Source: Escherichia coli (GTDB taxonomy: Bacteria; Pseudomonadota; Gammaproteobacteria; Enterobacterales; Enterobacteriaceae). From it: a DNA stretch of 64,000 bases. Below the pieces are notes generated by a model, which was not told the origin of the DNA, did not search any database, and saw only the letters and a list, made by a program, of their open reading frames with translations. The position numbers were made by a program, and so were the translations under genes. Shown piece after piece: positions 22,560-36,914 of the stretch. Where the stretch lies: the NCBI RefSeq assembly GCF_022846255.1, contig NZ_AP025682.1; one strand, 5' to 3'. Position 1 is the stretch's first letter. Each line of letters opens with the position of its first letter.

Positions 22560-22927
22560 CGTAAAATATCCTCTATACTGGTAAGTCCTTCATTATTTAG
22601 CCAGATCATGGCGTCATCCGGCAACTTGCTGTCTGGTTTGGCGTTTTTGAGAGAGGAACTCAGTCGCTTAATCCACATTGTCACCTCAGTAATGCGCCTG
22701 TCTTTGCCTTCCAGCTCAACACGCAGCTTCCCTACTGTTAGCGCAATATCCTCGTTCTCCTGGTCGCGGCGTTTGATGTATTGCTGGTTTCTTTCCCGTT
22801 CATCCAGCAGTTCCAGCACAATCGATGGTGTTATCAATTTATGGAAAAGGTCTGCGTCAAATCCCCAGTCGTCATGCATTGCCTGCTCTGCCGCTTCACG
22901 CAGTGCCTGAGAGTTAATTTCGCTCAC
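22556..22927 (-). CDS. Ead/Ea22-like protein
   Basis: 123 aa with N-terminus MSEINSQALREAAEQAMHDDWGFDADLFH typical of Ea22-like proteins. Confidence 0.6.
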   Translation of the reverse strand: MSEINSQALREAAEQAMHDDWGFDADLFHKLITPSIVLELLDERERNQQYIKRRDQENEDIALTVGKLRVELEGKDRRITEVTMWIKRLSSSLKNAKPDSKLPDDAMIWLNNEGLTSIEDILR

Positions 22928-23145
22928 TTCGAACCTCTCTGTTTACTGATAAGCTCCAGATCTTCCTGGCAACTTGCACAAGTCCGACAACCCTGAACGG
23001 CCAGGCGTCTTCGCTCATCTATGGGATCGCCACACTCACAACAATGAGTGGCAGATACAGCCTGGTGGTTCAGACGACGCATTTTTATTGCTGTATTGCG
23101 CTGTAATTCTTCGATTTCTGATGCTGAATCAATGATGTCTGCCAT
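22924..23145 (-). CDS. TraR/DksA-family C4 zinc-finger protein
   Basis: 73 aa with CxxC...CxxC motif. Confidence 0.7.
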   Translation of the reverse strand: MADIIDSASEIEELQRNTAIKMRRLNHQAVSATHCCECGDPIDERRRLAVQGCRTCASCQEDLELISKQRGSK

Positions 23146-23243
23146 CTTCCATTAATCCCTGAATTGTTGGTTAATACGCTTGAGGGTGAATGCGAACAAT
23201 AAAAAAGGAGCCTGTAGCTCCCTGATGATTTTGCTTTTCATGT

Positions 23244-23459
23244 TCACCGTTCCTTAAAGACGCCATTTAACATGCCGATCGCCAGGCTTAAATGAGTCGG
23301 TGTGAATCCCATCAGCGTTACCGTTTCGCGGTGCTTCTTCAGTACGCTACGGCAAATGTCATCGACGTTTTTATCCGGAAACTGCTGTCTGGCATTTTTG
23401 ATTTCAGAATTAGCCTGACGGGCAATGCTGCGAAGGGCGTTTTCTTGCTGAGGTGTCAT
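23244..23459 (-). CDS. lambda orf61-like hypothetical protein
   Basis: 71 aa from MTPQQENALRS; position after exo as in lambda. Confidence 0.5.
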   Translation of the reverse strand: MTPQQENALRSIARQANSEIKNARQQFPDKNVDDICRSVLKKHRETVTLMGFTPTHLSLAIGMLNGVFKER

Positions 23460-23535
23460 TGAACAAGTCCCATGTCGGCAAGCATAAGCACACAGAATTT
23501 GAAGCCCGCTGCCAGAAAAATGCATTCAGTGGTTG

Positions 23536-23727
23536 TCATACCTGGTCTCTCTCATCTGCTTCTGCTTTCGCCACCATCATTTCCAGCTTTTGTGAAAGGG
23601 ATGTGGCTAACGTATGAAATTCTTCGTCTGTTTCTACTGGTATTGGCACAAACCTGACTCCAATTTGAGCAAGGCTATGTGCCATCTCAATACTCGTTCT
23701 TAACTTAACAGGAGATGCTTTGTGCAT
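23536..23727 (-). CDS. lambda orf63-like hypothetical protein
   Basis: 63 aa, close to lambda orf63 as recalled. Confidence 0.55.
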   Translation of the reverse strand: MHKASPVKLRTSIEMAHSLAQIGVRFVPIPVETDEEFHTLATSLSQKLEMMVAKAEADERDQV

Positions 23728-23888
23728 ATCGCCTCCCGTTTATTATTTATCTCCTCAGCCAGCCGCTGGGCTTTCAGTGGATTTTGGATAACAGAAAGGC
23801 CGGGAAATACCCAGCCTCGCTTTGTAACGGAGTAGACGAAAGTGATCGCACCTACCCGGATATTATCGTGAGGATGCGTCATCGCCAT
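23700..23888 (-). CDS. lambda orf60a-like hypothetical protein
   Basis: 62 aa; overlaps exo stop as in lambda. Confidence 0.5.
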
Positions 23889-24559
23889 TGCTCCCCAAAT
23901 ACAAAACCAATTTCAGCCAGTGCCTCGTCCATTTTTTCGATGAACTCCGGCACCATCTCGTCAAAACTCGCCATGTACTTTTCATCCTGCTCAATCACGA
24001 CATAATGCAGGCCTTCACGCTTCATCCGCGGGTCATAGTTAGCAAAGTACCAGGCATCTTTTCGTGTCACCCACATGCTGTACTGCACCTGGGCCATGTA
24101 AGCCGACTTTATGGCCTCGAAACCACCGAGCCGGAATTTCATGAAATCCCGGGAGGTAAACGGGCATTTCAGTTCAAGGCCGTTGCCGTCACTGCATAAA
24201 CCATCGGGAGAGCAGGCGGTGCGCATACTTTCGTCGCGATAGATGATCGGGGATTCATTAACATTCACGCCGGAAGTGAACTCAAAGAGGGCTCTGGCGT
24301 CGTTCTCGTACTGTTTTCCCCAGGCCAGCGCCTTAGCGTTAACTTCCGGAGCCACACCGGTGCAAACCTCGGCAAGCAGGGTGTGGAAGTAGGACATTTT
24401 CATGTCAGGCCATTTCTTTCCGGAGCGGGGTTTTGCTATCACATTGTGAACTTCTGAAGCGGTGATGATGCCGAGCCGTAATTTGTGCCATGCATCATCC
24501 CCCTGTTCGACAGCTCTCACGTCGATCCCGGTACGCTGCAGGATAATGTCCGGTGTCAT
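23879..24559 (-). CDS. exo: lambda exonuclease (Red alpha)
   Basis: 226 aa, near-identical to lambda Exo as recalled. Confidence 0.97.
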
Positions 24560-30626: not shown

Positions 30627-31670
30627 TTACAGGTCAGCGTTTGTTTTTTGTTGTTGGGTAGCGGTTTTTATGGGGGTTCCCAGGTTTTTAGTAAACCACT
30701 CAACAACTCTGTTTATAATAATTGGCTGATACCATGTATTATCTCCATGCTCAGCCCCTTCTACCAGAACGTACTCAGCGTTATCGCCGTTCTTCTTCAA
30801 CATCCTGAATAGTTTGGCGCTTTGCTCAGGTGAAACCAGAGTGTCTTTGCTACCATGCATAATAAGAAATGGGGGGTTTACTCCTTTCATATGTCCGATT
30901 GGACTGGCGTTTAGCGCTTTTTCTTTTGACGCTGTTATGGGGGCTCCCGCAAAACTTCTGAATGCAGGGCCATTGATCATTAAGGCTTCGGTTACGGCAG
31001 GAGATCGATGAACCTCCTGCACAGATTCAGGGAACCCCTCGCCAATATTCAACAAGTCAGAAATCCCATAAAGTGTGGCAACTGCCTGAACATCTGCTGA
31101 TTGCTGAAGAAAGTCACCTTTATCAAAGGTTTTGTCACCATTTGTAGTTCCCATCATCTGGGCAAGCCATCCACCGGCAGAGTCACCCAGAACTCCGATT
31201 CTTTGAGGATCAATCCCATAATCGCTGGCATGTTCTCTCAAGTAACGTATTGCAGCTTTCCCATCCTCAACTGGTGCTGGAAATGTATCAGGAATTGTTC
31301 TGTATTCTACAGCGGCCACAACAAAACCAGCTTCAGCCAGAGCCATTCTCATTTCAATAAATTTGTCATGTTCAGAAGACATGAATCCGCCGCCGGGATA
31401 ATAAATAATGGCTGGTTTTAAATCATTTGTTCGTGGGACAAGAACTGACATGTGAAGCTGTCTGACAGAACGAGTTCCTTTTATCTGGGAATAAACAACA
31501 TCACCAATGAGATCGACCTGGTTTCTGGTCGGTGAAACACTAATGATATCTGCACCCGGGGTGTAACCAGGAAGATTAGTCTGGACAGGTGTTGCACAAC
31601 TCCCGACCGACATGGCCATTGACATACCATACAATAGTGTTGCAGATGATAATATCTTGTTAATTTTCAT
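30627..31670 (-). CDS. secreted esterase/lipase lipoprotein, HSL-type alpha/beta hydrolase
   Basis: 347 aa; signal peptide with lipobox SVGSC; oxyanion motif YYPGGGF; nucleophile elbow GDSAGG; C-terminal HGSKD and AEHGDN. Confidence 0.75.
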   Translation of the reverse strand: MKINKILSSATLLYGMSMAMSVGSCATPVQTNLPGYTPGADIISVSPTRNQVDLIGDVVYSQIKGTRSVRQLHMSVLVPRTNDLKPAIIYYPGGGFMSSEHDKFIEMRMALAEAGFVVAAVEYRTIPDTFPAPVEDGKAAIRYLREHASDYGIDPQRIGVLGDSAGGWLAQMMGTTNGDKTFDKGDFLQQSADVQAVATLYGISDLLNIGEGFPESVQEVHRSPAVTEALMINGPAFRSFAGAPITASKEKALNASPIGHMKGVNPPFLIMHGSKDTLVSPEQSAKLFRMLKKNGDNAEYVLVEGAEHGDNTWYQPIIINRVVEWFTKNLGTPIKTATQQQKTNADL

Positions 31671-33480: not shown

Positions 33481-33503
33481 CCTGATTTTTGTGGGGAAAG
33501 TTG

Positions 33504-33887
33504 ATGCGTGATATTCAGATGGTTCTTGAGCGTTGGGGGGCATGGGCGGCTAATAACCACGAGGATGTAACCTGGTCATCCATTGCTGCCGGTTTTAAGG
33601 GATTAATTCCTTCAAAAGTAAAGTCTCGCCCACAATGCTGTGATGATGACGCGATGATTGTTTGTGGATGTATGGCTCGCCTGAAAAAGAACAATAGCTA
33701 TTTGCATGATTTACTAGTGGATTATTATGTCGGGGGTATGACATTTATGTCACTGGCAAGTAAGCATTGTTGCTCTGATGGTTATATCGGGAAAAAGTTA
33801 CAGAAGGCTGAGGGAATAATTGAAGGGATGTTAATGGCATTAGATATACGGTTAGAGATGGATATCGTTGTTACTAAGTCTAATTAA
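33504..33887 (+). CDS. quuD: late-gene antiterminator Q
   Basis: 127 aa from [14 protein letters not shown]; matches DLP12 QuuD as recalled. Confidence 0.85.
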
Positions 33888-33914
33888 TACGCTAATTATT
33901 TACTAAGTGTTATT

Positions 33915-34068
33915 AAAAAAGGGGCGTAGAAACGCCCCCAAAAATAAAGGGTAATATATAACAGAAGGTTTATATAGTCAGAAGCAAGGTAGTGCTTCTA
34001 AAGGAAGTGGCTTGAGGGAGCCACTTATATGTTGGGGAGGTAAAGCCTCCCGCAACATATCTTTTTCG
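33915..34068. promoter_or_regulatory. late promoter / qut / terminator hairpin region
   Basis: several GC-rich hairpins (GGGGCGTAGAAACGCCCC, GAAGCAAGGTAGTGCTTC, GTGGCTTGAGGGAGCCAC, GGGAGGTAAAGCCTCCC) between Q and the convergent porin gene. Confidence 0.4.
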
Positions 34069-34076
34069 TAACCAGA

Positions 34077-35174
34077 TTAGAACTGGTAAACCAGTCCTAC
34101 GGCAACGATGTCGTCAGTGCTTACACCAAGTGCTTTAGTGAAGTCGTTTTTGTCAAGCAGGTTGATCTTGTAATCAACGAAAGTAGACATGTTTTTGTTG
34201 AAGTAATAAGTTGCACCTACATCAACATATTTGACTAAGTCCTGATCGCCCCATACTCCAAGATCCTTACCTTTAGATTGCAGGTAAGCAACGGACGGAC
34301 GCAGACCGAAATCGAACTGATATTGTGCAACAGCTTCGAAGTTTTGAGCTTTATTAGCAACGAAGTGATCAGCAAATACAGTCATATTCTGGGTTTCAGA
34401 ATAGGTAGTGGCCAGGTAAATGTTGTTAGCGTCATATTTCAGACCTGCGGCCCAAATTTCTGCATTTTTACCGGAAGCAAATACTTCAGGAAGAACTTTG
34501 CCTGCATTGACTTGAGTGTCGGTACGATCAGATTTCGCATAAGTCGCACCAATGCCGAATCCTTCGTATTCATAGGTAGCAGAGAAACCGAATCCATCAC
34601 CGTTACCTTCGGTGTAGTTATCGAAATCGCTACGATCGTTTTTACCTTGGTACTGAGCAGCAAAGTTCAGACCATCAACCAGACCAAAGAAGTCGTTGTT
34701 ACGGTAAGTTGCAACACCAGTTGCACGTTGAGTCATGAACACGTCGGTTTGAGTCCAAGTGTCACCACCGAATTCTGGCAGGACGTCAGTCCACGCACCG
34801 ATGTCGTATGCTACACCGTAGTTACGACCGTAATCGATGGAACCGTAGTCACCGAATTTCAGGCCTGCAAATGCAAGACGGGTTTTGTCTTTGGCGGAAC
34901 CTTGAGATTCAGCGCGGTTGCCTTTGAATTCATATTCCCACTGACCGAAACCAGTCAGTTGATCGTTGATTTGGGTTTCACCTTTGAAGCCCAGACGAAC
35001 ATAAGTAGTATCACCATCATCTGCATCGTTAGAGGAAAAGTAGTGCTTGGCATTAACTTTCCCGTACAGATCCAGCTTGTTACTGTCTTTATTATAAATT
35101 TCAGCTGCCTGAGCAGACATCGCCATCAGTACTGATGCAGCTACAGCAGAAATTGCCACTGTTAATTTTTTCAT
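34077..35174 (-). CDS. nmpC: outer-membrane general porin (NmpC/OmpC family), apparently intact
   Basis: 365 aa from [11 protein letters not shown]; signal peptide; C-terminal F; long AT-rich upstream region 35175-35716. Confidence 0.9.
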
Positions 35175-35761
35175 CGTGAGCCCTTTTTTTGAACTATTAT
35201 TAAAAAATGATGTCACTGCGCGATAAATATTCATCTAATCAATATGATTATTTCAAGATGTAAGTTTTAGTTTCTCATTTAATTTGTGAAGTAGATCTCT
35301 ATTTTTATCTGAACTTTTTCTATCGAAACCTATTTATGGCTCTTATTTGAACAAAAATAAACCTATTAGCTAATTTATATTAATGGCTGTTATTTATGGT
35401 GGTTCTATAATTCGGAAGTTTAATTTAAATCAACTAAAAATAACGTCGGAAATTATTTATTGGTTATTTGTTGAGGTTTTCTAATGTATTTGTGGTGGTG
35501 TTTTGAACACTCGGTAGCATTCTCATAAATATCATTCAGTGGTTTACGTACGTAAAAAATTGGTTATGCTGTTAAGAGTGGTTACTTCGTCACACAGCTT
35601 AAACCCGCCGTCGAGCTGGTTTTTCCATTTTTTGAGTCTCGATATTAGCTGATAACTCAATACCTGAGTTATTCACTGACTCCGAGTCTGTTACGTTTCT
35701 GCTTTTTTGCGATACGTTGTATTCCCTCAATTTACACCCGCTTTGTCTGCGAGGTGGGGTT

Positions 35762-35977
35762 ATGAAATCCATGGATAAGTTAACAACGGGTGTCGCCTAT
35801 GGCACCTCAGCAGGTAGTGCCGGTTACTGGTTTTTACAGCTGCTCGATAAAGTCACGCCCTCACAGTGGGCAGCAATAGGTGTGCTGGGTAGCCTGGTAT
35901 TTGGCCTGCTGACGTACCTGACAAACCTTTATTTCAAGATTAAAGAAGATAAGCGCAAGGCTGCGAGAGGTGAATAA
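35762..35977 (+). CDS. essD: holin
   Basis: 71 aa from [11 protein letters not shown] with one TM; matches DLP12 EssD as recalled. Confidence 0.85.
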
Positions 35978-36474
35978 TGCCTCCATCATTACGAAAAGCC
36001 GTTGCTGCTGCTATTGGTGGCGGAGCAATTGCTATAGCATCAGTGTTAATTACTGGCCCAAGTGGTAACGATGGTCTGGAAGGTGTCAGCTACATACCAT
36101 ACAAAGATATTGTTGGTGTATGGACTGTATGTCACGGGCATACAGGAAAAGACATCATGCTCGGTAAAACGTATACCAAAGCAGAATGCAAAGCACTCTT
36201 GAATAAAGACCTTGCCACTGTCGCCAGACAAATTAACCCGTACATCAAAGTCGATATACCGGAAACAACGCGCGGCGCTCTTTACTCATTCGTTTACAAC
36301 GTGGGTGCTGGCAATTTCAGAACATCGACGCTTCTTCGCAAAATAAACCAGGGTGATATCAAAGGCGCATGTGATCAGCTACGTCGCTGGACATATGCTG
36401 GCGGTAAGCAATGGAAAGGTCTCATGACTCGTCGTGAGATTGAGCGTGAAATCTGTTTGTGGGGTCAGCAATGA
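35977..36474 (+). CDS. rrrD: phage lysozyme (endolysin)
   Basis: 165 aa, T4-lysozyme-like with N-terminal signal-anchor; matches DLP12 RrrD as recalled. Confidence 0.9.
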
Positions 36475-36914
36475 ACAGAGTAACCACGATTATCTCCGCT
36501 CTGGTTATCTGCATCATCGTCTGCCTGTCATGGGCTGTTAATCATTACCGTGATAACGCCATCACTTACAAAAAGCAGCGTGATAAGGCCGTATCCATTA
36601 TTACTGACATGCAGAAGCGTCAACGTGATGTAGCTGAACTCGATGCCAGATATACAAAGGAGCTTGCTGATGCTAACGCGACTATCGAAAGTCTTCGTGC
36701 TGATGTTTCTGCTGGTCGTAAGTGGCTGCACGTCAAAGCAGTCTGTCCGGACAAGCATAAAACCACCGCCGCCTCCGGCGTGGATGATGCTTCCAGCCCC
36801 AGACTTACTGACACCGCTCAACGGGATTATTTCGTTCTCAGAGAGCGCATCGAAACCATAACTAACCAATTGAATGGCCTGCAAGAGTATGTGAGATCAC
36901 AGTGCTCATATTAG
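36459..36914 (+). CDS. rzpD: i-spanin Rz
   Basis: 151 aa, N-terminal TM then coiled coil; overlaps lysozyme end. Confidence 0.8.
36670..36861 (+). CDS. rzoD: o-spanin Rz1 lipoprotein, embedded in Rz in +1 frame
   Basis: 63 aa with lipobox VVSGC and proline-rich PPPPPAW. Confidence 0.7.

Follow-up and report, generated by a model that had tools for sequence, protein, structure and literature searches.

An intact Lc/NmpC-type porin gene with an AT-rich upstream region in a lambdoid Escherichia coli prophage

Known Lc/NmpC porins and the copy in this prophage

Many lambda-like E. coli prophages carry an Lc/NmpC porin gene between Q and the lysis genes, and a lysogen making an extra porin is the textbook lysogenic conversion by phage PA-2, whose Lc porin sequence dates from the 1980s. 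Phage 'morons' sit within a phage operon as autonomous accessory genes that have a promoter and a terminator of their own. The porin described here is a classic example: it lies between Q and the lysis genes in the reverse orientation, has both of these signals, and is lower in GC than its surroundings. In PA-2 (J02580.1), the lc gene likewise lies between Q and S/R/Rz and points the opposite way, with 95.1% DNA identity over 1.9 kb, 358 of 365 residues shared, and a signal peptide and two annotated CRP boxes that are the same as here. The two differ at seven amino acids, four of them clustered at residues 149-154, and in a variable patch of the AT-rich core at about 35340-35450. For nmpC (b0553) of the cryptic K-12 prophage DLP12, 362 of 365 residues are shared once IS5 is removed, and in both DLP12 and phage 434B, the neighbors are quuD, essD, and rrrD, as here. 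However, the K-12 and 434B copies contain IS5 at a CTAA after codon 346 (the 434B record is annotated 'porin NmpC; IS5 insertion after codon 346'), whereas the copy reported here is free of it. Also, the K-12 intergenic region lacks 16 bp close to the holin, at about 35719-35734.

The window, that is, the whole 64-kb stretch of DNA analyzed, contains a mechanical ORF running from the first ATG on the minus strand (34077-35234 in the ORF list). Biologically, the gene starts at ATG 35174, preceded by AAAGGG, which gives it 1098 nt and a direct translation of 365 aa with zero internal stops (Table 1). The preliminary description had claimed a full-length nmpC-like porin with a signal peptide and a C-terminal Phe, borne by a prophage and lacking the IS of the K-12 copy, and all these points are borne out: the frame is uninterrupted, the 23-aa peptide is that of the PA-2 record, the CTAA is unoccupied, and the gene lies between a Q antiterminator and a holin. 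The signal peptide is of the typical cleavable Sec type, and the mature OmpC chains in the PDB align with the porin from residue 24 on, matching its length. The chromosomal porins OmpC, OmpF, and PhoE and the Salmonella OmpD belong to the same fold family and share the PEFGG eyelet motif, read here from the loop-3 sequence, and the final Phe, here in ...GLVYQF. In contrast to the chromosomal porins, the present one is prophage-borne and would combine a CRP-dependent promoter of its own that responds to temperature with an sRNA in its 3' UTR.

Judged by its sequence, the protein belongs to the enterobacterial general (trimeric, 16-strand) porins of the OmpC/OmpF/PhoE family. It scores 530.1 bits over residues 8-365 against the NCBIfam model NF007841 (porin OmpC subfamily; cut-off 484) and does not reach the PhoE and OmpF equivalog cut-offs, and the PDB entries of OmpC, OmpK36, PhoE, and OmpF match across the whole mature porin with E values from 1e-137 to 1e-109 (OmpC, E = 6e-137, residues 24-365). 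Hindahl is said to have reported the channel conductance of NmpC in 1984. An identical protein is already in NCBI (e.g. BDH32604.1) and is found on 38 contigs, and the 90% cluster to which it belongs has 896 members named porin, LC, or NmpC. There are three substitutions relative to K-12 NmpC without IS5 (A59V, S94A, and V240I), all of them conservative, and the protein differs from STE15 by the same three. Of the 34 nucleotides that differ from K-12 nmpC, 31 are synonymous changes, which indicates purifying selection on the coding sequence.

The 1.9-kb locus has matches in 3851 of 5426 complete E. coli genomes, the best at 97% and annotated quuD-porin-essD, and in 44 phage records, including PA-2 J02580.1 (lc, 95.1%) and 434B; phage records label the porin gene OmpD or OmpC. 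When the IS5 site was surveyed in complete E. coli genomes with a 201-bp probe spanning the K-12 insertion point, it was uninterrupted in 1488 of the 1770 genomes that matched the probe (about 84%), and the split cases, among those sampled, were mostly laboratory strains of the K-12 type. The intact porin is thus the normal state and K-12 the exception. The locus has at least 95% identity to the known cassette, on the opposite strand between Q and an S21-type lysis cassette, with the promoter-proximal CRP box and the core promoter sequence conserved and with a 3' flank containing an IpeX homologue. Except for the three conservative substitutions and the variable patch of the AT core, it matches the known Lc/NmpC cassette. 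The gene is therefore an intact copy of a long-known porin, correctly recognized as such, ordinary and already known, and its phage origin, regulation, and sRNA have been described since the 1970s-2000s.

Table 1. Positions of the porin gene, its flanking elements, and neighboring genes in the window
Feature	Position	Strand	Basis or remark
Q-like antiterminator, QuuD type	33504-33887	+	phrog_79, E = 1.5e-52; quuD in relatives
Porin 3' UTR, IpeX sRNA homologue: four stem-loops and intrinsic terminator	33910-34076	-	Homology, folding
Terminator-like hairpin followed by CUUUUUC	34027-34068	+	-21.3 kcal/mol, z = -4.7
Porin CDS, Lc/NmpC type, 365 aa and stop	34077-35174	-	ORF reading, homology
CTAA, IS5 target in K-12 DLP12 and phage 434B; empty here	34135-34138	-	Sequence comparison
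Porin signal peptide, 23 aa, cleavage AQA/AE	35106-35174	-	sig_peptide of J02580.1
Porin-holin intergenic region, GC 0.33; AT-rich core 35200-35500, GC 0.26	35175-35761
Sigma-E-type lysis-cassette promoter, GAACTA-N16-TCACT, +1 = A35223	35191-35223	+	Published K-12 primer mapping
Putative core porin promoter: TTGAAA 35251-35256, AATATT 35226-35231, start G 35219 or 35221	35214-35256	-
Proximal CRP box (AGAGATCTACTTCACA), predicted	35282-35302	-	misc_binding 1363-1383 of J02580.1
Distal CRP box annotated in PA-2 (TGTGACGAAGTAACCA)	35578-35598	-	Feature 1067-1087 of J02580.1
Holin, EssD/S21-like, 71 aa	35762-35977	+	Annotation in relatives
Endolysin	35977-36474	+	Follows holin
Rz	36459-36914	+	Follows endolysin

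The neighbors of the porin (NinB, RusA, Q, holin, endolysin, Rz, and large terminase), together with a first 12 kb of the window that is E. coli chromosome at 99.7% identity (evgS-oxc-frc), identify the element as a lambdoid E. coli prophage. Host LysR-type regulator genes extend to 21713 at its left end, and the next genes are those for a dATP/dGTP pyrophosphohydrolase/DUF551 protein, Exo (YqaJ), and RecT. This end (about 21700-23900) showed no integrase, and the whole window has no tRNA genes. The nin region contains a second opposite-strand cargo gene (30627-31670, minus strand), encoding a 347-aa alpha/beta-hydrolase esterase/lipase with a lipoprotein-like N terminus (phrog_3341) that scores far under all NCBIfam equivalog cut-offs. 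In the distal part of the window, the ORF for tail-fibre assembly, 60406-60990, overlaps in its 3' part with a full-length Rfam IS009 RNA (RF02111, 229 bits; 60749-60947, plus strand). Past the tail-fibre genes, a 479-aa ORF (62434-63873, plus strand) has zero Pfam or NCBIfam matches, the best among the matches listed for this segment being 99.7% identical and annotated 'hypothetical protein'; a class I SAM methyltransferase gene (61045-61713, minus strand) adjoins it.

The phages that match at 94-97% across 34077-35780 reach only about 91% over the Q gene with its 3' flank (33489-33887), a difference that suggests a mosaic joint near the boundary between Q and the porin. A search for the late promoter pR' through porin-less phages sharing Q was not productive, Q being only about 91% identical to its relatives, and the comparison was uninformative, as the phages matching only the first half of Q diverge inside it.

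What is established directly here is the intact gene, its homology, the sequence conservation of the promoter, the CRP boxes, and the IpeX region, and the AT-richness upstream. The reading proposed for the locus is that of a functional accessory porin. The lysogen would express it from a dedicated promoter that depends on CRP, responds to temperature, and is modulated by OmpR and H-NS, and IpeX would lower OmpC and OmpF; by analogy with the homologues, a probability of about 0.9 is assigned to this reading.

The AT-rich intergenic region and its two putative promoters

The upstream region had been described as AT-rich over about 540 bp. The AT-richness stands, with a GC content of 0.317 for 35175-35716 against 0.489 for the window, a core within the lowest 0.06% of 300-bp windows, and the GC minimum of all 64 kb (300 bp) beginning at 35191. 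The length does not, because the region measures 587 bp to the holin ATG at 35762, the annotated start, and not 542 bp; position 35716 is only a mechanical TTG start of the holin ORF. The intergenic region is 92.8% identical to K-12 nmpC/essD, and therefore data obtained on the K-12 region should transfer; the identity is 94.5% with PA-2 and 98% with STE15. Most differences among the window, PA-2, K-12, and STE15 fall in the patch of about 100 bp at 35340-35450 in the AT core, the rest being nearly invariant. A repeat search in the core gave weak repeats only, none of them interpretable.

For K-12, the nmpC promoter is reported to lie inside -199..-1, with activity gone when only this stretch is deleted, the start was mapped to a 'G', and the primers put the rrnB terminator immediately after ...TATCGCGCAGTG (PMC11677980). 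From this placement of the terminator, we infer a start at G35219 or G35221 and the hexamers AATATT and TTGAAA as the core promoter, a stretch in which a single base differs between the window and K-12. A consensus sigma-70 scan of the intergenic region returned no promoter, the best hexamers having a 19-bp spacer. Relative to the start proposed, the proximal CRP box, with 2 mismatches in 10 to TGTGA-N6-TCACA, would be at about -73, a class I position. The function of the distal box is doubtful because it has three mismatches and is about 415 bp from the porin ATG.

The same region bears a promoter on the other strand, a role that the preliminary description had overlooked. The regulatory region of the DLP12 lysis cassette was cloned as '-121 to +650' (PMC7918800), and the forward primer of that work maps exactly to 35102-35121. 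The reverse primer, printed with two bases fewer than the genome has, finds no match in that form, and a 12-mer served to locate its site; the amplicon length of 771 bp is confirmed in K-12. The forward primer together with the stated limits sets the +1 at A35223, 6 nt past the TCACT of a sigma-E-like element that the window shares unchanged with K-12. By analogy with DLP12, the AT-rich region would thus double as a leader of about 539 nt for the holin-endolysin-Rz transcript.

This raises the question of whether the AT-rich region serves chiefly as leader and promoter for the lysis cassette, with the porin using only the proximal 130 bp or so, as far as the CRP box (35282-35302), or about 200 bp at the very most (the stretch deleted in K-12). 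The published DLP12 start and its element support this view, since a 539-nt leader covers the whole region, as do the loss of the K-12 porin promoter upon the short deletion mentioned above and the holin-proximal 330 bp, which are almost invariant in the window, PA-2, and STE15. However, the two roles are compatible, the proximal CRP box and the porin promoter being inside the same region, H-NS occupancy would act on both promoters, and a terminator scan detected none in the leader. The explanation is a serious contender, at slightly under even odds.

According to these positions, which come indirectly from the primers of K-12 papers, the divergent starts G35219/35221 on the minus strand and A35223 on the plus strand would be only 2-4 bp apart. 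Each promoter would then have its -10 element within the first transcribed bases of the other, so RNA polymerase at one could exclude it from the other in an either/or manner, although such mutual exclusion is considered unlikely. If true, it would constitute a switch between remodeling of the porins of the lysogen (porin and IpeX) and the lysis genes upon envelope stress or induction, situated under the H-NS-covered AT-rich leader and with the lysis promoter controlled by sigma-E and Q. No published description of a coupling between the porin and lysis promoters was found, and the near-coincident divergent starts would be the only loose thread of the locus with any novelty.

The 3' flank and the IpeX homologue

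PA-2 adsorbs to OmpC, and OmpC is lost in PA-2 lysogens. Between the porin stop and the Q stop there are 189 bp, about 94% identical to K-12 pairwise and with a mean column identity of 97% over four aligned sequences (window, K-12, PA-2, and STE15), where the substitutions of the window fall mostly in loops or unpaired positions. The RNA of this flank on the porin strand has a minimum free energy of -61.3 kcal/mol (z = -8.0), and its intrinsic terminator consists of a GC hairpin at 33920-33939 followed by a T run. The flank, passed over in the preliminary description, is a conserved and strongly structured IpeX homologue. No Rfam family was found for it, either at the gathering threshold over the whole window or at E <= 1 on 33700-36000, and thus the assignment rests on homology to K-12 and on the literature, in which IpeX is a 167-nt DLP12 sRNA processed from the porin transcript (PMC12197685, PMC5069750) that represses ompC and ompF (PMC12197685, PMC5069750, PMC3333887). 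A paper on the prophage sRNA svsR, checked for a link to this locus, mentions neither the porin nor IpeX.

On the opposite strand, the hairpin at 34027-34068, 140 nt past the Q stop, has its stem in common with the first IpeX hairpin; it was missed by a simple terminator scan owing to a 1-nt bulge. This hairpin would block read-through of early-right transcription from Q into the porin gene.

The repression of both porin genes by IpeX (PMC5069750) also opens the possibility that the selected benefit is superinfection exclusion and not permeability, in which case the porin and IpeX would replace OmpC and OmpF, the receptors of related phages. The conserved and structured IpeX region and the PA-2 behavior given at the opening of this section are counted in its favor. 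This explanation of the benefit is considered possible but rather unlikely.

Proposed expression and meaning of the accessory porin

The title of one paper reportedly calls nmpC 'quiescent' in E. coli B, and for this reason expression of the porin may depend on strain and condition. That title, like the extremely AT-rich core, would favor a porin that is intact but effectively silent, H-NS coating the upstream DNA so that the protein makes no contribution under ordinary conditions. Also, in K-12, the divergent nmpC(-)/essD(+) region is among the 'promoter islands', a class described as transcriptionally suppressed, and it is bound by H-NS in all three ChIP-chip data sets compared (PMC3661553). 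In the 587 bp here, an H-NS nucleation motif (TCGATAAATT-like) has one match with up to two mismatches and is not enriched over the window, an uninformative count.

Nonetheless, the K-12 nmpC promoter drives the IS5 transposase and gave the only detectable read-through ins5A transcript in 5' RACE, and it is activated by CRP at two operators, whereas OmpR, IHF, and MprA repress it (PMC11677980). Moreover, when K-12 is shifted from 23 to 37 °C, nmpC rises 16.5-fold, which places it among the most strongly induced genes (PMC8544407), and in CFT073, mRNA and protein of two porin genes annotated nmpC are both higher at 37 °C (PMC12890032). With these data, and with the strong purifying selection on the coding sequence, a silent porin is very improbable. 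The upstream DNA had earlier been called H-NS-silenced or regulated; the second term suits a region whose K-12 homologue is bound by H-NS, and the first does not, because activity of the K-12 promoter in wild-type cells argues against full silencing. 'H-NS-bound and regulated' would therefore describe it better than 'silenced'.

Promoter activity, regulators, H-NS occupancy, thermoregulation, and IpeX function come from papers on homologues and would apply here by analogy. For the functional accessory porin, the following sequence of events is proposed. A general diffusion porin is carried as a self-contained moron, in reverse orientation, in the interval from Q to the lysis cassette, and the lysogen would transcribe it from a dedicated sigma-70 promoter lying no more than about 200 bp from the ATG. 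As with K-12 and PA-2, this promoter would be embedded in AT-rich DNA bound by H-NS, activated by cAMP-CRP, and repressed by OmpR, IHF, and MprA, with 37 °C strongly favored over 23 °C. The protein would be exported through its 23-aa signal peptide and form an OmpC-like 16-strand trimeric channel, and the 3' end of the transcript would yield the IpeX homologue, which would lower OmpC and OmpF. As a net result, the prophage would reset the porin set of the host, and with it permeability and the receptors for phages and colicins.

The finding has little weight as a discovery and is of practical relevance for work with this strain. K-12 is a poor proxy for the trait, its own copy being broken by IS5. 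By analogy with its relatives, the strain, when at body temperature, probably produces a third major porin along with an sRNA that lowers OmpC and OmpF, and such an extra porin and sRNA can shift antibiotic permeability, sensitivity to phages and colicins, and surface antigens.
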